From positions 1 to 5,824 of the IMG/VR virus record IMGVR_UViG_3300044275_000090: a stretch of 5,824 nt of DNA; one strand, 5' to 3'. Source of the DNA: a virus. The stretch's first letter is position 1, and each line of letters starts with the position of its first letter. Below are positions 1-5,824 of the stretch, in pieces. Under the pieces are notes generated by a model. That model was not told the DNA's origin. It did not search any database and saw only the letters and a program-made list of their open reading frames with translations. The translations under genes were made by a program, and so were the position numbers.

Positions 1-127
1 CTCCTGCTAGTGGTGTCGCTAAAGTTCTTGCTCGTGGTGGTGCAGGTTATGCTTTGTCTGTTGCAGTTGAACAGTTACTTGGTGCTGTAGATTGGGTTCT
101 AGATCCTGCTAATAATCAGATTAAGTA
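1..127. repeat. Left copy of an exact 127-nt direct terminal repeat (circular-closure overlap)
   Basis: Bases 1-127 match 5698-5824 at every position in a base-by-base comparison (offset 5697). The repeat lies inside a single reading frame that stays open across the junction. Confidence 0.95.
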
Positions 128-1145
128 TTGGGAAACAGATGCTGCTTTGCCCCCTAACACTTGTTCTGCCCCTTATACGCTTAAATATGGTTCTCAAACT
201 TTAACTACTTCACAAGTCATATCAAAAATTAAAGCCGATATTGAAATACGTAATCCTTCCAATTTTGCACAGGATTTTAACGGTGTTAAATCAATTTCTT
301 GTACTGGTTCGCAAGTTACTATTGTTGTCGGTGTAAAGTGGTGTTCAACTAATTGTGCACCCGGTATTGTTTATACTTATGGCGGTGGTGCTGGTGATCG
401 TGTTTCAACTTTCACTATTGTAGGTGAAGCCGAAAAAGAAGAACCTAAAACAATTCCCCTAGAAACTGTTGCCCAACAGGTTATTTCTAATGCCGAATCA
501 GGCGATACAAATGCTCAAGTTGCAACAACTGCAGCTGCTGCTGATATTGTTGCAGAAGCTGAAAAAGATGATGCTAAAGCTCGTCCTATTGCTCAACAAT
601 TAGAATCTTCCGCACAAACTAAGCCTGCCGACGAAGCTGCTGCTGAAAAAGCAAATGAAGCTCAAGGACAATCAAAGCCAAATACTCAAAATCCCGAAGC
701 AATGGATTTGTCTTTAGAATTTCCTGTTTTTTGTGGTTGGGCGCCTTTAGTTTGTGAAGCTGCTCAAGTTGTTATCTCTTTTCCTCAAACAATTACAAAT
801 TGGTGGGAAACAGGAAAATCAAAAGCTGAAGAATGGGCTACATCAATTTCCGAAGCTTGGACAAAAGTAAAAGAAGAATATGCTGATAAACCTGAAGAAA
901 ACACTGATACAGAATTAGATATTCCTGATCTGTCAGATGAATCCATTGATAGTGATATTTCTTTTGGTGGTTCTTGTCCTGCTCCTCTCTCCAGTGACAT
1001 AAATTTTATGGGTCTAAACAAAACTATTGAGTTTTCTTTCGACCCTGTTTGTCAGATTGCTGAATTTATTAAGCCTGTTGTTATTTCTATTTCTGCTTTT
1101 TCTGCTGCCTTAATTGTTGCAGGTATTAGAACGGAGGATGATTAA
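1..1145 (+). CDS. pIII-like adsorption/minor coat protein, 3' part (joined gene 5490..5697+1..1145 = 1353 nt, 450 aa)
   Basis: The frame is open from base 3 to the TAA at 1143-1145. The TTG start at 54 in the track is an artefact of linearisation. The architecture is pIII-like: a Cys-rich N-terminal region with Gly-rich stretches (GGWTLGGG, YGGGAGD), an Ala/Glu/Gln-rich low-complexity linker (about 500-700), and a Cys-containing C-terminal domain ending in a hydrophobic anchor (IKPVVISISAFSAALIVAGI) plus a short charged tail (RTEDD). It sits between the coat gene and the pVI-like gene. Confidence 0.8.
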   Translation, partial: PASGVAKVLARGGAGYALSVAVEQLLGAVDWVLDPANNQIKYWETDAALPPNTCSAPYTLKYGSQTLTTSQVISKIKADIEIRNPSNFAQDFNGVKSISCTGSQVTIVVGVKWCSTNCAPGIVYTYGGGAGDRVSTFTIVGEAEKEEPKTIPLETVAQQVISNAESGDTNAQVATTAAAADIVAEAEKDDAKARPIAQQLESSAQTKPADEAAAEKANEAQGQSKPNTQNPEAMDLSLEFPVFCGWAPLVCEAAQVVISFPQTITNWWETGKSKAEEWATSISEAWTKVKEEYADKPEENTDTELDIPDLSDESIDSDISFGGSCPAPLSSDINFMGLNKTIEFSFDPVCQIAEFIKPVVISISAFSAALIVAGIRTEDD

Positions 1146-1147
1146 AA

Positions 1148-1426
1148 ATGTGGTCTAAGCTTTCCGATCTGTTCACATCACTACAGAAAGGCACATTAAA
1201 AAACGTTCTTACTGGTGCAGGTCTTATGTTGGGTAGTAATGCCATTTTTCTTACTGCCTTTTCTGCTGCCGTTAATGTCTTAAAAAATTCTGTTGGCTCT
1301 GTTTCTGCCGATGTTCTTGGACTTGCTCATTTAGCAGGTTTTGACATTGCAATGTCTTTAATTCTTGGCGCTATCGTCACACGTTTAACCCTAAATTCGC
1401 AAAAGCTAATGTTGAAAAAAGCATAG
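1148..1426 (+). CDS. pVI-like minor coat / virion-cap membrane protein (92 aa; resembles the DUF2523 type found next to zot in many inoviruses)
   Basis: GGAGG at 1133-1137 and an ATG 2 nt after the upstream stop suggest translational coupling. The protein is small with two or three hydrophobic segments (GAGLMLGSNAIFLTAFSAAV; LGLAHLAGFDIAMSLILGAIV). Its position between the pIII-like and pI/Zot-like genes is the canonical gVI slot. The family assignment comes from memory of the sequence pattern, not from a search. Confidence 0.65.
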   Translation: MWSKLSDLFTSLQKGTLKNVLTGAGLMLGSNAIFLTAFSAAVNVLKNSVGSVSADVLGLAHLAGFDIAMSLILGAIVTRLTLNSQKLMLKKA

Positions 1427-1494
1427 CGACCAAAAGACATCCGCATCCGTCATCCCGTCGGCTCGCGCGGGTGCGGTGCGGTGTCTATGGTCGC
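1426..1494 (+). other. GC-rich imperfect hairpin with periodic single-T bulges; candidate packaging signal, complementary-strand origin or mRNA attenuator
   Basis: GCGACCA (1426-1432) pairs with TGGTCGC (1488-1494). The inner stem segments AGACA/CCGCA/CCG/CA/CCCG/CG pair with the 3' arm, giving about 28 bp in total. Unpaired T residues sit at 1440, 1446, 1450, 1453 and 1458, all on the 5' arm, and the loop is 1461-1465. By my count 46 of 69 bases are G+C, in an otherwise AT-rich genome. Confidence 0.6.
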
Positions 1495-1510
1495 AAAAGG
1501 AGAATAAATA

Positions 1511-2920
1511 ATGTTGCATTTGATTACTGGTACACCTGGTGCAGGAAAAACCCTTTATGCCGTTTCACTCATTGTTAAATATGAAGATGCTAACGAACGT
1601 GCTTTGATTTATAACGCTGCTGCGCTTAAACATAATAAAGAATTAATCGAGAAACATAATCTTGCTGACTATTTTGCTTCGTACTCTTACTTTAGTAAAA
1701 AGACTAAGGAACAAGAAACCGTTTTATTTGAGCCTGATCATTTTGATTATCTCAATGATCAATTACGTACTGAAAACATATTTTTAGACATTCAGTTTTA
1801 TAACGGTATTTGTAAGATTATTAAAAATGATCTTGATCTTGATCTTAAAACCCTCAAAGACGTTCGCCATATCTACGCCAATATCGACGGTTTAAAAGTT
1901 CCTAATGTTCGACCTATTGAAATTGATTGGCGCAAATGTCCTGATGGTTCAATTATTTTCTATGATGAAATTCAGCTCATCTATGAATATTCAACCGACA
2001 ATAAACAAGACAAAGAAAATATTGTTAAAGAATTAACTATTCACCGACATAGAGCATTTGATATTTATGGAATTACTCAATTTCCTTCACTGGTCCATAC
2101 CAATTATAGGGCTGTTGTTGGGTTACATTATCACTTGCATCGTGGGTGGGGTGCGCCTTCTGCCACCGTTTACGTTTGGGCAAACTGTCGAGATAAGCCT
2201 AATAGCTTGGGGAACAAGCTTACTGCTGAACGTGATTTTCGATTTAACTATCCTAAACGATTGTATCAATACTACGAGTCTGCAACAGCCAACACAGTTA
2301 AGCTGCGTGTACCTCTTAAATTATTCGCAATCCTTATTATTCCATTACTCGGATTATTTATGGTTGGTAATATGCTCTTTGGCGGTGGTAATAATTTCTT
2401 GGGTACAATCTTTGGCTCTAAAGAAAAAACAGAACAGGTAACAAAAAATGAAACTACTTCTAATCCATCCGTTAATAATTCTAGCTCTAATCTTTCTCCT
2501 TCCAGTGATCAAAAGGCTATGGATTTATCGTTAGAATGTCGAAAGGCAGTTAATTTAGAAAAGCCTGAATGTATTAAATGGTTTGATGATCTTTCTAAAA
2601 ATGGTTCTTCCGTTACTTCTACTGGTCAAGTTGTTCAAACTGTTTCTTATAATCCCAACAAGCCTTATGATTTTGAATATCAGCCACAAGTACAACCAAC
2701 AGATTTCCCCCGCATGTCAGGTGTGATTAAGCTCTCCAGTGGCAAACTTGTTGCCATTGATCAGCAGGGCAACTATATGACAGGTATTTCACAACAAGAT
2801 TGTCTAAGATGGTTAGATGGTTATCGTCCTTTTAATTATTTTGCTTCATCACCACAGCAACAGAGGGAGCGGAGTGCTCCCGAACAATCACAATTGAATC
2901 CTGAAACTTCTTCTCTCTGA
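1511..2920 (+). CDS. zot: Zot / pI-family filamentous-phage assembly ATPase (469 aa)
   Basis: AAGGAG at 1498-1503 lies 7 nt before the ATG. Walker A is GTPGAGKT (1529-1552) and Walker B is IIFYDEIQ. The Zot-typical block HRHRAFDIYGITQ is present. A single TM segment (LKLFAILIIPLLGLFMVGNMLF, about aa 269-290) is followed by a Ser/Asn-rich linker and a periplasmic C-terminal domain. It lies directly downstream of the pVI-like gene. Confidence 0.9.
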   Translation: MLHLITGTPGAGKTLYAVSLIVKYEDANERALIYNAAALKHNKELIEKHNLADYFASYSYFSKKTKEQETVLFEPDHFDYLNDQLRTENIFLDIQFYNGICKIIKNDLDLDLKTLKDVRHIYANIDGLKVPNVRPIEIDWRKCPDGSIIFYDEIQLIYEYSTDNKQDKENIVKELTIHRHRAFDIYGITQFPSLVHTNYRAVVGLHYHLHRGWGAPSATVYVWANCRDKPNSLGNKLTAERDFRFNYPKRLYQYYESATANTVKLRVPLKLFAILIIPLLGLFMVGNMLFGGGNNFLGTIFGSKEKTEQVTKNETTSNPSVNNSSSNLSPSSDQKAMDLSLECRKAVNLEKPECIKWFDDLSKNGSSVTSTGQVVQTVSYNPNKPYDFEYQPQVQPTDFPRMSGVIKLSSGKLVAIDQQGNYMTGISQQDCLRWLDGYRPFNYFASSPQQQRERSAPEQSQLNPETSSL

Positions 2921-2944
2921 TTACAAGCTCCCTTATGATCTCAA

Positions 2945-2967
2945 GCGGGATTTACAGAGCGTCCCGC
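2945..2967 (+). other. GC-rich stem-loop in the large intergenic region (origin or recombination-site candidate)
   Basis: GCGGGA (2945-2950) and TCCCGC (2962-2967) flank an 11-nt loop. A further GC-rich stretch GGGCGCG follows. It stands out compositionally in AT-rich non-coding DNA. Confidence 0.4.
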
Positions 2968-2988
2968 ATGGGCGCGAACTGAGGGAAT

Positions 2989-3078
2989 ATGGATTTTATT
3001 AAATGGTGCCTTAAATTTTTCATTATGCTGTTAGTTTTTGGCTTTCTTATTAGATTTTTTTACAGCTTTGTTTTATAG
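2989..3078 (+). CDS. Hypothetical 29-aa hydrophobic mini-protein (pVII/pIX-size candidate), absent from the ORF track
   Basis: The ATG at 2989 runs to the TAG at 3076-3078 and encodes MDFIKWCLKFFIMLLVFGFLIRFFYSFVL. GAGGGA lies just upstream at short spacing. The initiation context GGGAATATGGA resembles that of the other mini-ORF at 5443 (GGGATATATGGA). Caveat: a T-rich strand readily gives hydrophobic ORFs by chance. Confidence 0.35.
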   Translation: MDFIKWCLKFFIMLLVFGFLIRFFYSFVL

Positions 3079-3084
3079 TTAATC

Positions 3085-3112
3085 AAAATGTTTACATGAC
3101 AACAAACATTTT
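3085..3112. promoter_or_regulatory. Inverted repeat holding a 14/16 copy of the 4600-4615 operator palindrome, upstream of rep
   Basis: AAAATGTTT (3085-3093) and AAACATTTT (3104-3112) are exact reverse complements around a 10-nt loop. TGTTTACATGACAACA (3089-3104) differs at 2 of 16 positions from TGTTGTCATGACAACA (4600-4615). Confidence 0.5.
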
Positions 3113-3120
3113 TAAGGACG

Positions 3121-3152
3121 AAAAAAAACCTGAACGGCAATTCAGGCTTTTT
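3121..3152 (+). terminator. Weak bidirectional-looking intrinsic terminator or attenuator between the structural operon and rep
   Basis: The element reads A8 (3121-3128), CCTGAA (3129-3134), a 6-nt loop, TTCAGG (3141-3146), C, then T5 (3148-3152). The stem is only 6 bp, so strength is doubtful. Confidence 0.35.
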
Positions 3153-3190
3153 CGGTGAATTTGTGCTTGCGACACTGGATATATTAAACA

Positions 3191-4360
3191 ATGGATTCCT
3201 CTTTAAGTCAAATCAATACCCCAAAAATCGACGCCCTTGGTATATTTACGAAATCTCAGTCCACGCCCGAAAACAAAGGCTTTCAGAGGGTTCATGATTT
3301 TTTATTACAAGATCAATCAGCAAAGCTTTTGCCCCTTGAAAGAGTCACTAATTGTTTAAAAAGACGCATTGATAAATCTAAAGGTCGTTTCGTTAAATAC
3401 AATGAAGAAAGATGTAAAGCTCACTGGAGTAATGTTCAACGATGCGGTTCTATTTGGACTTGCCCTGTCTGTGCTAAACAAATTACTGAAAAACGTCGTG
3501 AAGAATTAAAGCAAGGTGTTAAAACTTGGAAAGATCGTTTTCAGGGTGGAATTCTTCTTTTAACTCTTACAAATAGTCATTCTGCTAGTCATTCTCTCCG
3601 TTCTCTTATTGCAGGACAAAAAAAGGCCTTAGGCTATTTCTTTGGTGATCGGAAAGGTAAGTTTCTTTTAGATGATTGTCTAGGTCGTGAATATCAAGTA
3701 CGTGCTTTTGAAGTTACTCACGGTAAAAATGGTTGGCATCCTCATTATCATATTTTGATTTTTACAAATGGTCAGCCTGTTGAAAATTTCTTTGAATTAA
3801 AACAATCCCTTTCTAAACACTGGATTAACTGCTGTCAAAAAGCAAATCTCCCCCTTCCATCCCTTCAACATGGTTTAGATATTCGTGATGGTTCTTATGC
3901 TGAACAATATGTCTCTAAATGGGGTGTTGAAAGTGAATTAACAAAAGGTCATATCAAAAAAGGTCGTGAAGGTGGTTTAACTCCTTTCGATCTGCTTCAA
4001 TCTTCTATGCTTGAACATGAATTATCTGAACAACATGGAAAGCTTTATCAGGAATTTGGTGTTGCTTTTAAAGGTGCTCGTCAATTGGTTTGGTCACGTG
4101 GTCTTAAAAAGCTTTTAGAAATTGAAGAAAAAACAGATGAAGAACTAGCAGAAGAAACAGAAAACATGGGTATTACTTTAGAAGAAGTACCACAATTAAT
4201 TTTTTCATTGTTATGTAAATATCAAAAACGTCATACATATTTAACTGCACTGGAGAATGATTACAGCTCAGGGAACTACGGCACAATCACCAGTGAAGCC
4301 TATTTATTAATAGAGGATTTAGCAAAAAGAGAAATTGCTTTTATTGAATCACACTATTAA
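3191..4360 (+). CDS. Rolling-circle replication initiator, HUH endonuclease of the pC194/pUB110 (Rep_1-like) type (389 aa)
   Basis: The motif order matches pC194-family Rep proteins as I recall them. The motifs are CGSIWTCPVCAKQITEKRR (compare RFCPVCAWRKARK), ILLLTLTNSH (compare FIFLTLTTPN), the HUH motif WHPHYHILIF (3737-3763; compare NPHFHVLIAV), the Tyr motif AEQYVSKWG (compare EMAKYSGKD) and RQLVWSRGLKK (compare RLLVYSGLFKE). Confidence 0.85.
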   Translation: MDSSLSQINTPKIDALGIFTKSQSTPENKGFQRVHDFLLQDQSAKLLPLERVTNCLKRRIDKSKGRFVKYNEERCKAHWSNVQRCGSIWTCPVCAKQITEKRREELKQGVKTWKDRFQGGILLLTLTNSHSASHSLRSLIAGQKKALGYFFGDRKGKFLLDDCLGREYQVRAFEVTHGKNGWHPHYHILIFTNGQPVENFFELKQSLSKHWINCCQKANLPLPSLQHGLDIRDGSYAEQYVSKWGVESELTKGHIKKGREGGLTPFDLLQSSMLEHELSEQHGKLYQEFGVAFKGARQLVWSRGLKKLLEIEEKTDEELAEETENMGITLEEVPQLIFSLLCKYQKRHTYLTALENDYSSGNYGTITSEAYLLIEDLAKREIAFIESHY

Positions 4361-4531
4361 TTCTCCTTTCTCAACTTTGCATTTTTCCAAAGCTTTTATT
4401 AGTACGTCGTGAAGGATTTCACTATCTTTCATGACGTTCTTTCCTAGGTCTAAACGTTGCCTATTTAGTTCTTCGCTTATCTTTTTTAGAAGCTCATCTT
4501 CTATCTTCTTTACTCGTAAATACGCCATCAT
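4349..4531 (-). CDS. Small transcriptional regulator, ribbon-helix-helix (Arc/CopG-like) candidate (60 aa)
   Basis: This is the only credible - strand gene. It is transcribed divergently from the structural operon, out of the operator-rich region. The pattern is a beta-strand-like N-terminus (AYLRVKKI), helix A (EDELLKKISEELNRQRL), a G-containing turn (DLGKNVMKDSE) and helix B (ILHDVLIKALEK). This resembles Arc (ENGRSVNSEIYQRVMESF). The fold call is by eye only. Confidence 0.55.
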   Translation of the reverse strand: MMAYLRVKKIEDELLKKISEELNRQRLDLGKNVMKDSEILHDVLIKALEKCKVEKGELIV

Positions 4532-4568
4532 TTTGAAATCTCTTAAAAAAAACTCAGTTTTTTAGTGT

Positions 4569-4619
4569 AATTTATTGTTGTCATTTCGTCTTGACAACTT
4601 GTTGTCATGACAACATAAT
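4569..4619. promoter_or_regulatory. Divergent sigma70-type promoters with overlapping -35 boxes and four operator half-sites
   Basis: The + promoter is TTGACA (4591-4596), a 17-nt spacer, then CATAAT (4614-4619). The - promoter is TTGTCA (complement of 4592-4597), a 17-nt spacer, then TAAATT (complement of 4569-4574). TGTTGTCA half-sites lie at 4576-4583 and 4600-4607. TGACAAC(A) half-sites lie at 4592-4598 and 4608-4615. Positions 4600-4615 form a perfect 16-bp palindrome filling the + promoter spacer, and 4576-4583 sits in the - promoter spacer. Confidence 0.65.
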
Positions 4620-4665
4620 ATTTCGTACAAACTTTGTGATAACAGACAAACAGAAGGGTAAAGAA

Positions 4666-4908
4666 ATGGACGGAATTAAAGTTTTAGTAGAAGGCGTTAA
4701 ATTAAATACATTCACATCAAAAAAAGGTAATGACCTCTTTACTTTTGAAGTTGTCGAGCCTGTAACTAAGTTTGTTGCATATACAAACAATTCTGAAAAA
4801 GGTCAGTTGGCTGATCTTGCGGAAAGTGGTGAATTTGTCGATTTACAACTGATTCTAAAAGGTGATCGTTTGTATTTTGCTAATGCTCAAATTTCTAATG
4901 CTCAGTAA
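4666..4908 (+). CDS. pV-like ssDNA-binding protein (80 aa)
   Basis: The ATG at 4666 is preceded by AGAAGGG 7-8 nt upstream. The tracked TTG start at 4591 coincides with the promoter -35 box and is rejected. The size (80 aa) and the slot (first gene of the structural operon, before the coat genes) fit gene V. The N-terminus MDGIKVLVEGVKLNTFTSKKGNDLF resembles M13 gVp MIKVEIKPSQAQFTTRSGVSRQGKPY. Confidence 0.6.
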   Translation: MDGIKVLVEGVKLNTFTSKKGNDLFTFEVVEPVTKFVAYTNNSEKGQLADLAESGEFVDLQLILKGDRLYFANAQISNAQ

Positions 4909-4929
4909 TTTTTACTGAGCGTTTTTTTT
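4900..4929 (+). terminator. Rho-independent terminator/attenuator overlapping the ssb stop codon
   Basis: GCTCAGTAA (4900-4908) and TTACTGAGC (4912-4920) are perfect 9-nt complements around TTT. They are followed by G and then T8 (4922-4929). Confidence 0.7.
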
Positions 4930-4941
4930 GGATTTTAAAAA

Positions 4942-5130
4942 ATGGCAAAGGTCTGTGAAATCGTTAATGAACTTACAAACCAATGCGATCTATGGATTGA
5001 TCAAGTTTCTTTGATTGATCAAATGGCAATAACAAAAGCGCAAATGATTATGTTGGGGACTCCCATTATTGGGATTTATGGCTTGATCATCGCTTTTGCT
5101 CTTTTCAATAACTTTTCCAAGAGGGCTTAA
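4942..5130 (+). CDS. Small membrane protein (62 aa) in the gVII/gIX slot; possible minor coat or assembly protein
   Basis: The ORF lies between the ssb-like and major coat genes. It has a C-terminal TM segment (MLGTPIIGIYGLIIAFALF) followed by the basic tail NNFSKRA. No clear Shine-Dalgarno element is present. An internal ATG (M28) would give a 35-aa product of pVII/pIX size. Confidence 0.5.
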   Translation: MAKVCEIVNELTNQCDLWIDQVSLIDQMAITKAQMIMLGTPIIGIYGLIIAFALFNNFSKRA

Positions 5131-5132
5131 TC

Positions 5133-5396
5133 ATGGAAAACAATCAAACTGCAATTGAGTTGCAAAAAAAACCTACTTTTGTTTCTCGCGTTAAAGATGC
5201 TGCATTTGTAGGTGCTGTTACTGGTTCTGCATTGATGCTTACTTCAGGTGCTAATGCTGCTGCTTCTTTGGACTTCACAGGTGCAACAGAAGAATTAACA
5301 GGCGTACAAACTGCCGTTGTTGGCATTATCGGTACTCTTGTTGTCTTGATCGGTATCGGCATTGCTTGGTCATACTTCAAACGTACAGCCAAGTAA
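5133..5396 (+). CDS. pVIII-like major coat protein precursor (87 aa; predicted 45-aa mature protein)
   Basis: GAGGG at 5121-5125 lies 7 nt before the ATG. The leader ends in the signal-peptidase motif SGANA/AAS. The mature part AASLDFTGATEELTGVQTAVVGIIGTLVVLIGIGIAWSYFKRTAK has the classic layout: an acidic N-terminus (D, E, E), a hydrophobic helix and a basic C-terminus (K, R, K). A strong terminator follows immediately. Confidence 0.85.
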   Translation: MENNQTAIELQKKPTFVSRVKDAAFVGAVTGSALMLTSGANAAASLDFTGATEELTGVQTAVVGIIGTLVVLIGIGIAWSYFKRTAK

Positions 5397-5404
5397 TTGG
5401 TATT

Positions 5405-5433
5405 AACGCCTCCGCTTGGGGGCGTTTTTATTT
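5405..5433 (+). terminator. Strong rho-independent terminator after the major coat gene
   Basis: AACGCCTCC (5405-5413) pairs with GGGGGCGTT (5418-5426), giving 8 Watson-Crick pairs plus one G-T, around the loop GCTT. The trailing sequence is TTTATTT. The placement matches the terminator after gene VIII in Ff phages. Confidence 0.8.
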
Positions 5434-5442
5434 GGGGGATAT

Positions 5443-5526
5443 ATGGAAGAACAAGCATCAATTTTATACTGGATTCCTTTGGTGGTCACATGGGTCGCAT
5501 TACATCTTTTAGCAAGCAAGTTATAG
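5443..5526 (+). CDS. Hypothetical 27-aa hydrophobic mini-protein (pVII/pIX-size candidate), absent from the ORF track; overlaps the pIII-like start out of frame
   Basis: The ATG at 5443 runs to the TAG at 5524-5526 and encodes MEEQASILYWIPLVVTWVALHLLASKL, with an acidic N-terminus, a single hydrophobic helix and a basic end. GGGGGA lies at 5434-5439, just upstream. Its stop lies 34 nt inside the pIII-like ORF, which would allow coupled translation. Confidence 0.4.
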   Translation: MEEQASILYWIPLVVTWVALHLLASKL

Positions 5527-5824
5527 TTTTTTTTCTTGTTACAGCCTTAATTATTCGTCCTACTTTTGCTGCCAATGTTGGCGGTTGGACTTTGGGCGGT
5601 GGTGTTGCTCAAGGTGCTTCTACTGTTTATGAGGGTACAAAAAAAGTCGTTATTGATGGTGTTGATTATATAAAAAAAGGCACTGCAAAAATTACACCTC
5701 CTGCTAGTGGTGTCGCTAAAGTTCTTGCTCGTGGTGGTGCAGGTTATGCTTTGTCTGTTGCAGTTGAACAGTTACTTGGTGCTGTAGATTGGGTTCTAGA
5801 TCCTGCTAATAATCAGATTAAGTA
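5490..5824 (+). CDS. pIII-like adsorption/minor coat protein, 5' part (signal peptide and N-terminus); continues across the circular junction into 1-1145
   Basis: The ATG at 5490 is in the same frame as tracked ORF 54..1145 (5490 and 5751=54+5697 are both 0 mod 3), with no stop through 5824. The N-terminus MGRITSFSKQVIVFFLVTALIIRPTFA/ANVGG has a basic n-region, a hydrophobic core and an A-x-A-like cleavage site. A GGTGG Shine-Dalgarno-like element lies 4 nt upstream. The ORF track missed it because the ORF runs off the window end. Confidence 0.75.
   Translation, partial: MGRITSFSKQVIVFFLVTALIIRPTFAANVGGWTLGGGVAQGASTVYEGTKKVVIDGVDYIKKGTAKITPPASGVAKVLARGGAGYALSVAVEQLLGAVDWVLDPANNQIK
5698..5824. 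repeat. Right copy of the exact 127-nt direct terminal repeat
   Basis: Identical to 1-127. An exact end overlap of this kind is what a circular molecule yields when written out as a linear contig. Confidence 0.95.

Follow-up and report, generated by a model that had tools for sequence, protein, structure and literature searches.

The window analysed here, a 5,824-nucleotide (nt) stretch of viral DNA (IMG/VR record IMGVR_UViG_3300044275_000090, positions 1 to 5,824), carries a small gene for a protein of 60 amino acids (aa) on the strand opposite to its strongest promoter, and the core of that promoter is filled with end-to-end copies of an octamer, TGACAACA. The opposite-strand regulator-like gene and the repeated octamers had both been pointed out in an earlier note on this DNA, and both are there. 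We lean towards the view that the 60-aa protein is a small oligomeric repressor which occludes the main promoter through the array of 8-base-pair (bp) units, in a manner resembling omega and MetJ. A pair of operator and repressor is the best reading of the comparative data because the array is invariant across divergent regulators and because the octamers track the 60-aa family; this much of the earlier proposal holds, whereas the identity of the repressor as a ribbon-helix-helix (RHH) protein is not demonstrated.

The array covers the whole interval between the -35 and -10 hexamers of the main promoter (Table 1), which reads into the ssb-like, coat and assembly genes and which is a near-consensus promoter on the + strand, as the earlier note had claimed, and has the top sigma-70 score in the window. 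Its second and third units form a perfect 16-bp palindrome, TGTTGTCATGACAACA at 4600-4615, and together with a single half-site at 4576-4583 and an inverted half-site over the -35 hexamer (a copy matching at 7/8 positions, 4592-4599) this palindrome had been described as an operator of four half-sites. All these elements are present, but they are better described as five in-phase 8-bp frames over 4576-4615 (← 8/8, ← 5/8, → 7/8, ← 8/8, → 8/8), and a fourth exact copy of the octamer at 3097-3104 had been overlooked. The unit TGACAACA is symmetric at its outer TG..CA only and is not itself palindromic, and a direct repeat, TTGTTGTCAT, stands at 4575 and again at 4599, 24 bp apart. Exact TGTTGTCA, the unit in its inverted form, occurs four times when both strands are counted (0.32 expected), a number reached in 0 of 200 shuffles. 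When in-phase units were counted with at most one mismatch per unit in either orientation, none of 3,000 Markov-simulated genomes had a triplet of contiguous units and 20 of them had a doublet. A copy at 4637-4644 (one mismatch) was rejected as a part of the system, being out of phase and not conserved in the related loci L001 or L018, and a literature search for the octamer returned unrelated primer matches alone.

In all of the related loci (the comparison set holds about 40, given below by L numbers) the same promoter comes after the regulator, and the -35 hexamer of this promoter is the first of at least three contiguous 8-bp units reaching the -10 hexamer. The promoter recurs at 10-11/12 in L003, L019, L020 and L021, and nothing else in the intergenic region is as well conserved as the array when regulators 45-98% identical are compared; at the main promoter the array is invariant across regulators that are 45-100% identical. 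Orientation of the units varies: it is →←→ in the window and L019, →→→ in L003, L020, L028 and the Acinetobacter baumannii contigs, →→→→ in L008, and →→← in L021, L029, L031 and L048. Columns without any variation in alignment A5 are the TGACAA of the -35, the CATG at the junction of units, the terminal CAT with which the -10 hexamer starts and a GTAC near the start site, which probably lies within the transcription-start region; in units 2 and 3 the four inner bases are either ACAA or TTGT. Because orientation varies in the relatives and the register is constant, the 16-bp palindrome is an accident of one arrangement, and the aligned loci indicate that the constraint is on the phase and the identity of the units. 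The logic of palindrome and inverted half-sites, taken earlier as the key feature, is specific to the window's clade, as the relatives are all-direct or otherwise mixed in the same 8-bp register. Similarly, the half-site at 4576 is exact in the window but matches at only 5/8 positions in L019, where the regulator is 90% identical, and so is not conserved. Two readings of the palindrome were rejected on the same grounds, that of a hairpin or origin, since the all-direct arrays of relatives are unable to form a hairpin, and that of a site for a host palindrome-binding factor. In L004-L006 the intergenic region is longer and contains an extra repeat, TTGTCTTGTTGTC, about 60-170 nt upstream of the regulator, with GACAAC cores 7 bp apart and inverted copies around an AT-rich centre, and TGACAACA arrays lie further upstream.

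The 60-aa open reading frame (ORF) is a real gene under strong purifying selection, because the ratio of nonsynonymous to synonymous substitution rates (dN/dS) is 0.03-0.09, with dS up to 1.1, in comparisons with L001, L018 and L019. Its 3' end overlaps that of the gene for the replication protein (Rep) by 12 nt in convergent orientation. In every relative the regulator is on the strand opposite to the main operon and divergent from it, and this arrangement holds beside four different Rep families and is seen in the distant L009-L011, L035 and L037. The family is small (23 representatives in 1.84 billion clusters, 160 matches in 5.8 billion proteins) and found in small inoviruses only, with a Pfam domain annotated in 0 of the 160 homologues. 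An exact copy of the protein is listed in 99 indexed collection blocks; a genome-collection scan for the regulator gave no match, an Rfam search gave sub-threshold noise alone, and a literature search found no description of a regulator of this phage group.

As far as sequence comparison can tell, the units go with the 60-aa family rather than with that of Rep. This bears on the idea that the octamers are Rep binding sites (iterons or origin elements) or other parts of the replication origin and overlap the promoter only incidentally, which we find improbable. The units do flank the Rep-regulator module on both sides, close to Rep, the boundaries of mosaic modules coincide with them, and short repeats are often present in rolling-circle origins. 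In L012, however, Rep is 49% identical and closer to that of the window than the Rep of many unit-bearing relatives, a CopG-like gene replaces the 60-aa family and there are zero units; in L018 the Rep-side site is missing, yet Rep is 99% identical. The related phages blackswan219-6 and PMBT54, which are without the 60-aa family, have no units in this role. Distant members of the family adjoin gene II-type, CRI-type and other Rep genes, and next to one of them, beside an unrelated Rep of the gene II type, palindromic TGTCGACA octamers stand at a distance of 24 bp from each other, and the spacer of the main promoter contains one of them. Furthermore, the arrays at promoters are always in exact -35 to -10 register, variable unit orientation rules out a conserved hairpin, and a TGTG..ACAC element upstream of the Rep start (see below) is the better origin candidate. 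Rep iterons were thus judged unlikely, as the units follow the regulator family.

In blackswan219-6 (L032, MZ474488.1) the same slot as that of the window's regulator is filled by an unannotated ORF of 129 aa (863-1252, - strand), which overlaps the 3' part of Rep and has a Cro/C1-type helix-turn-helix (HTH) signature, YKLAEVLGVTRQAISQQRTG. In PMBT54 (L033) a tandem array of 4 x 8 bp at 1764-1795, TCGTGTTN (TCGTGTTT/A/T/G), runs into a -35-like TTGACG hexamer, precedes the ssb genes and adjoins the antisense ORF2. The array is absent from the published description of the phage, whose authors describe the function of ORF2 as elusive and mention hits to MatP and SeqA (PMC10534721). An RHH domain was not confirmed in ORF2 by Pfam, and its hhalign comparison with the 60-aa protein was not significant, leaving homology undetected. 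An additional small protein with an omega-like RHH_9 domain is encoded upstream of Rep in some relatives, as a weak match in L045 (3480-3677, A. baumannii LMBM01000079.1) and as ORF13 in PMBT54 (7127-7318, 1.4e-06), and therefore two small regulators may be encoded in these phages.

These phages also bear on whether the array is an intrinsic feature of the promoter, a reiterated -35-like TGACA, or the site of a host factor, with an unrelated function for the 60-aa protein. We regard this as rather unlikely. Unit 1 supplies the TTGACA of the -35 hexamer, the ATGACA repeats look like more -35 boxes, and the 60-aa protein is without a recognisable DNA-binding signature, but the inverted TGTTGTCA units in the spacer would be unusable as a -35 and spacers are not normally conserved. 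A dimeric host factor binding to a palindrome would not tolerate the →→→, →←→ and →→← variants, and the explanation is at odds with the lack of units in related phages without the 60-aa family and with the repressor-type genes that take the same slot in related phages.

Several observations weigh against a repressor acting on the array. In L003-L008 the regulator and Rep both diverge and the unit is constant, so that these loci by themselves do not discriminate between the two candidates. The candidate regulator promoter is weak taken alone, because sigma-70 matches at its level are not enriched over shuffles (10 observed, 16.2 expected), and it is kept in the window's clade and, with a changed spacer, in L019, but this form of it is missing from L003, L020 and L021. 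Thus, the - strand promoter of the earlier note is present, but its score is common by chance and it is clade-restricted, and the sharing of the -35 hexamers, which do overlap on opposite strands at 4591-4597, is real in the window but limited to its clade and L019. The two promoters had been called face-to-face and are actually divergent, standing back-to-back. At the second octamer site, between the 29-aa membrane ORF (orf29) and Rep, there is a -35-like TTTACA (3091-3096), yet no recognisable -10 in the window. The net charge of the 60-aa protein is only about +1. Profile searches of Pfam, NCBIfam and PDB with 25 diverse members (E<=10) detected no RHH or other DNA-binding family, and hhalign against Arc, omega and CopG, after their sequences had been checked against PDB, gave probabilities of 0.1-0.3%, which are not significant. 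Three Foldseek searches (PDB, BFVD) yielded nothing at E<=0.001; Arc (1b28) came at rank 20 (E=9.2, template modelling score 0.38), in a comparison that has low power for a 60-residue monomer model. Finally, with a shallow alignment of 25 close homologues AlphaFold2 (AF2) made residues 2-28 one helix, and 1 of the 5 models was confident.

With a deep alignment (40 diverse sequences) AF2 predicted, again for a single chain, an extended stretch at residues 1-8, helices at 9-28 and 36-50 and a beta-hairpin at 52-59, and all five models agreed with a predicted local distance difference test (pLDDT) of 80-91, the top value being 91.5. In the family, L5 and V/I7 are hydrophobic, R6 is invariant and positions 4 and 8 are variable. 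The predicted order of strand, helix and helix and this residue pattern are compatible with an RHH monomer without its partner. A match to an HTH family was absent in Pfam and NCBIfam, and the predicted topology is not that of an HTH domain. The RHH-like regulator of the earlier note is therefore compatible with the AF2 topology, but profile, hhalign and Foldseek searches give no link to it and the topology shifts with alignment depth, leaving the RHH fold compatible with the models but undemonstrated.

From the comparative data we infer that the 60-aa protein binds the units, that it is oligomeric, that it represses rather than activates and that the pair works as a physiological switch. The protein would most plausibly be a dimer similar to RHH proteins, from a divergent family without annotation, binding cooperatively to contiguous TGACAACA units in either orientation with one oligomer per unit. 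Once bound to the array it would exclude RNA polymerase at 4591-4619 and turn off the ssb-like, coat and assembly genes. Negative autoregulation could result in the window's clade, where the array overlaps the -35 of the regulator and two more in-phase frames are in its promoter spacer, and the weaker two-unit site upstream of Rep would probably place expression on the Rep side under the same regulator. One or two units lie in the orf29-Rep interval of almost every relative, and in two of them the syntenic position holds a strong promoter directed towards Rep, the spacer of which is filled by two exact units: L003 (TTGACA-17-TACAAT, 11/12) and L048 (TTTACA-17-CATAAT, 10/12). Units thus fill the 17-nt spacer of two independent promoters, always on the ssb side and, in L003 and L048, also on the side of Rep. 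HTH dimers require much longer sites, and contiguous units of 7-8 bp are a signature of RHH proteins such as MetJ and omega. It is plausible that the pair decides between a carrier state and virion production. More tentatively, and in our estimation doubtful, the protein could represent an unrecognised inovirus-restricted class of repressors that read repeat arrays of an asymmetric 8-bp unit in any orientation, perhaps a structurally distinct RHH derivative in which helix A is long and a hairpin is added at the C-terminus. If this were true, an operator code shared by regulators only 45% identical would bring family-wide cross-immunity among Acinetobacter-type filamentous phages, and the operator arrays would double as homologous junctions at which replication-regulator modules are swapped between structural modules.

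The protein could also bind the array mainly as an activator, an architectural factor or a partition (centromere-binding) factor of the episome, for which we see little probability. Omega2 represses and also binds centromeres in the manner of ParB on arrays of this kind (PMC9499535), the phage is apparently episomal, and the site at 3089-3104 is without a recognisable promoter in the window. A ParA-type partner gene is nevertheless missing from the 5.7-kb genome. Binding sites that take up a promoter spacer are as a rule sites of repression.

The repressor that we favour has parallels in several known systems. Closest in layout is omega (ω2) of pSM19035 (PDB 1irq, 2bnw), like here a small protein with gapless short non-palindromic repeats that overlap promoters. 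Omega2, an RHH protein, recognises 7-bp repeats that follow one another directly in mixed orientations; it binds arrays of 3-4 repeats more than 50-fold better than a single one, and tight binding takes several units (PMC9499535). Its repeats work in direct or inverted order, and the phage arrays, in which gapless short units overlap the promoter and direct and inverted units both occur, present natural orientation variants. In contrast, the unit is 7 bp in omega and 8 bp in the phage, hhalign gives a probability of 0.3% and there is no sequence similarity, and the phage protein has in the models a longer helix A and an extra C-terminal beta-hairpin, has no ParA partner and belongs to an inovirus. 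MetJ, also an RHH protein, binds tandem 8-bp metboxes with one dimer per unit and cooperative contacts between neighbours, and its 8-bp period is that of the phage array; however, the metbox is palindromic and TGACAACA is not, MetJ needs S-adenosylmethionine as corepressor, and there is no homology.

In the immI region of phage P22, Arc and Mnt act at the overlapping divergent promoters Pant and Pmnt, with an operator between the -35 and -10 of the strong promoter, and the window likewise has a strong promoter back-to-back with a weak divergent one. Arc differs in binding as two dimers to a 21-bp operator with no array of 8-bp units, hhalign lays YLRVKKIEDELL on the strand and helix A of Arc with a probability of merely 0.3%, and the overlap of divergent promoters in the phage is limited to the window's clade. 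In filamentous phages, RstR of CTXphi and Pf4r of Pf4 are encoded opposite the replication and structural operon and have their operators at the main promoter. The same layout, an opposite-strand gene facing the promoter of the main operon, is present in the window and in distant homologues. Unlike the 60-aa protein, which is without an HTH signature, these repressors are HTH proteins (Xre or CI-like) with longer operators, and the window's regulator is downstream of Rep and faces the ssb-side promoter, with no integration module seen. ORF2 of PMBT54 resembles the regulator in being antisense, in its length of 64 aa, in its slot after Rep and in its place next to a 4 x 8-bp array, although the unit sequence is different.

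Thus, the type of switch is familiar, whereas the protein family is unannotated, the array is of 8 bp and free in orientation, and the phage group is poorly studied. Small episomal inoviruses are common in metagenomes, and the control of their virion production is essentially uncharacterised. The locus offers a compact pair of regulator and operator, and its orientation variants are a natural mutational dataset on how an asymmetric 8-bp unit is read. If the repressor reading is true, it would give a function to the phrog_5642 family, provide a portable part made of a 24-bp operator and a 60-aa repressor, and hint at how carrier-state infection is set in Acinetobacter-type filamentous phages.

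Table 1. Features of the 5,824-nt window, with positions numbered from its first letter.
Feature	Position	Strand	Details
Main promoter	TTGACA (4591-4596)-17-CATAAT (4614-4619)	+	11/12, best sigma-70 match in the window
Candidate regulator promoter	TTGTCA (4597-4592)-17-TAAATT (4574-4569)	-	9/12
Core array (putative operator), three contiguous 8-bp units	4592-4615		TGACAACT (→), TGTTGTCA (←), TGACAACA (→)
Distal exact unit and degenerate in-phase frame	4576-4583 and 4584-4591		TGTTGTCA and TTTCGTCT; in the spacer of the candidate regulator promoter
Invariant GTAC	4625-4628	+	Alignment A5 columns G97, T98, A99, C100; about 6-9 nt past the -10
Secondary two-unit site	3089-3104		TGTTTACA-TGACAACA = TGTTTACATGACAACA; between orf29 and Rep; matches the 16-bp palindrome at 14/16 positions
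TspB-like adsorption protein			Gene wraps around the genome ends
DUF2523 minor coat protein	1148-1426		
Zot/pI ATPase	1511-2920		
29-aa membrane ORF (orf29)	2989-3078		Hydrophobic, MDFIKWCLKFFIMLLVFGFLIRFFYSFVL
Rep, rolling-circle replication protein, Rep_1 family	3191-4360	+	Pfam Rep_1 1.1e-11; phrog_11698 1.9e-112
60-aa candidate repressor gene	4349-4531	-	ORF; phrog_5642 (function unknown) 2e-15
80-aa ssb-like ORF	4666-4908	+	First gene after the main promoter; phrog_21135, function unknown
62-aa ORF	Between the 80-aa ORF and the major coat protein gene		
Major coat protein	5133-5396		

The window is a complete circular inovirus genome of 5,697 bp, because its first 127 nt are repeated at its end. 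The base composition is 37% GC, and the ORF list together with Pfam and PHROG matches gives the gene order of a small filamentous phage. A nucleotide search of the whole genome against 50,697 deposited phage records found no relative. Relatives are represented by contigs of about 5.9 kb in A. baumannii assemblies, with no integrase seen, and the phage appears to be episomal. Since three A. baumannii assemblies contain relatives and the GC content is similar to that of the window, Acinetobacter or other Moraxellaceae are indicated as hosts, and the host is probably an Acinetobacter-like bacterium. The gene that had been named ssb is present as an ORF, but the single-stranded DNA (ssDNA)-binding label comes from its position among the genes; searches of Pfam and PDB returned zero matches for it, and it is followed by a terminator-like hairpin at 4897-4923.

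Upstream in the assembly module, orf29 is 68-100% identical in L001-L003 and L007 and is probably a genuine small membrane protein. Between the DUF2523 and Zot genes there is a GC-rich imperfect hairpin at 1427-1493 (54% GC), which as ssDNA has a folding energy of -24.9 kcal/mol (z=-6.4, with 0 of 200 shuffles equally stable) and is a candidate for a packaging signal or minus-strand origin. A second hairpin is located upstream of Rep at 3123-3152, AAAAAAAACCTGAA-CGGCAA-TTCAGGCTTTTT, with flanks of an A-run and a T-run (z=-3.2). Its form is kept across relatives, including a compensatory double change in L041 (CCTGAT...ATCAGG), and the hairpin may act as a terminator in both directions, as an attenuator or as part of an origin. 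Directly before the Rep start, at 3161-3190, an inverted repeat TGTG(N7-9)ACAC is followed by an AT-rich ATAT/TTATAA stretch. The element is shared with L003-L008, L022-L024 and L048 and is highly conserved even at a Rep identity of 42%, and together with the AT-rich stretch it may represent the plus-strand origin with its nick site. The ATG of Rep is without a preceding Shine-Dalgarno sequence, and gene calls make Rep 410 aa long in L039-L044, where the regulator is identical, versus 389 aa in the window, which indicates a 63-nt length difference within Rep.

The module of Rep, regulator and operator is 97-100% identical across contigs that have differing ssb-like (81%) and Zot (49%) genes. 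Breaks in the mosaic are found beside the octamer sites, at about 3097-3110 and about 4616 of the window (L001, L018, L039-L044), and as homology breaks adjoin these sites, the conserved arrays are suggested to serve as recombination junctions.

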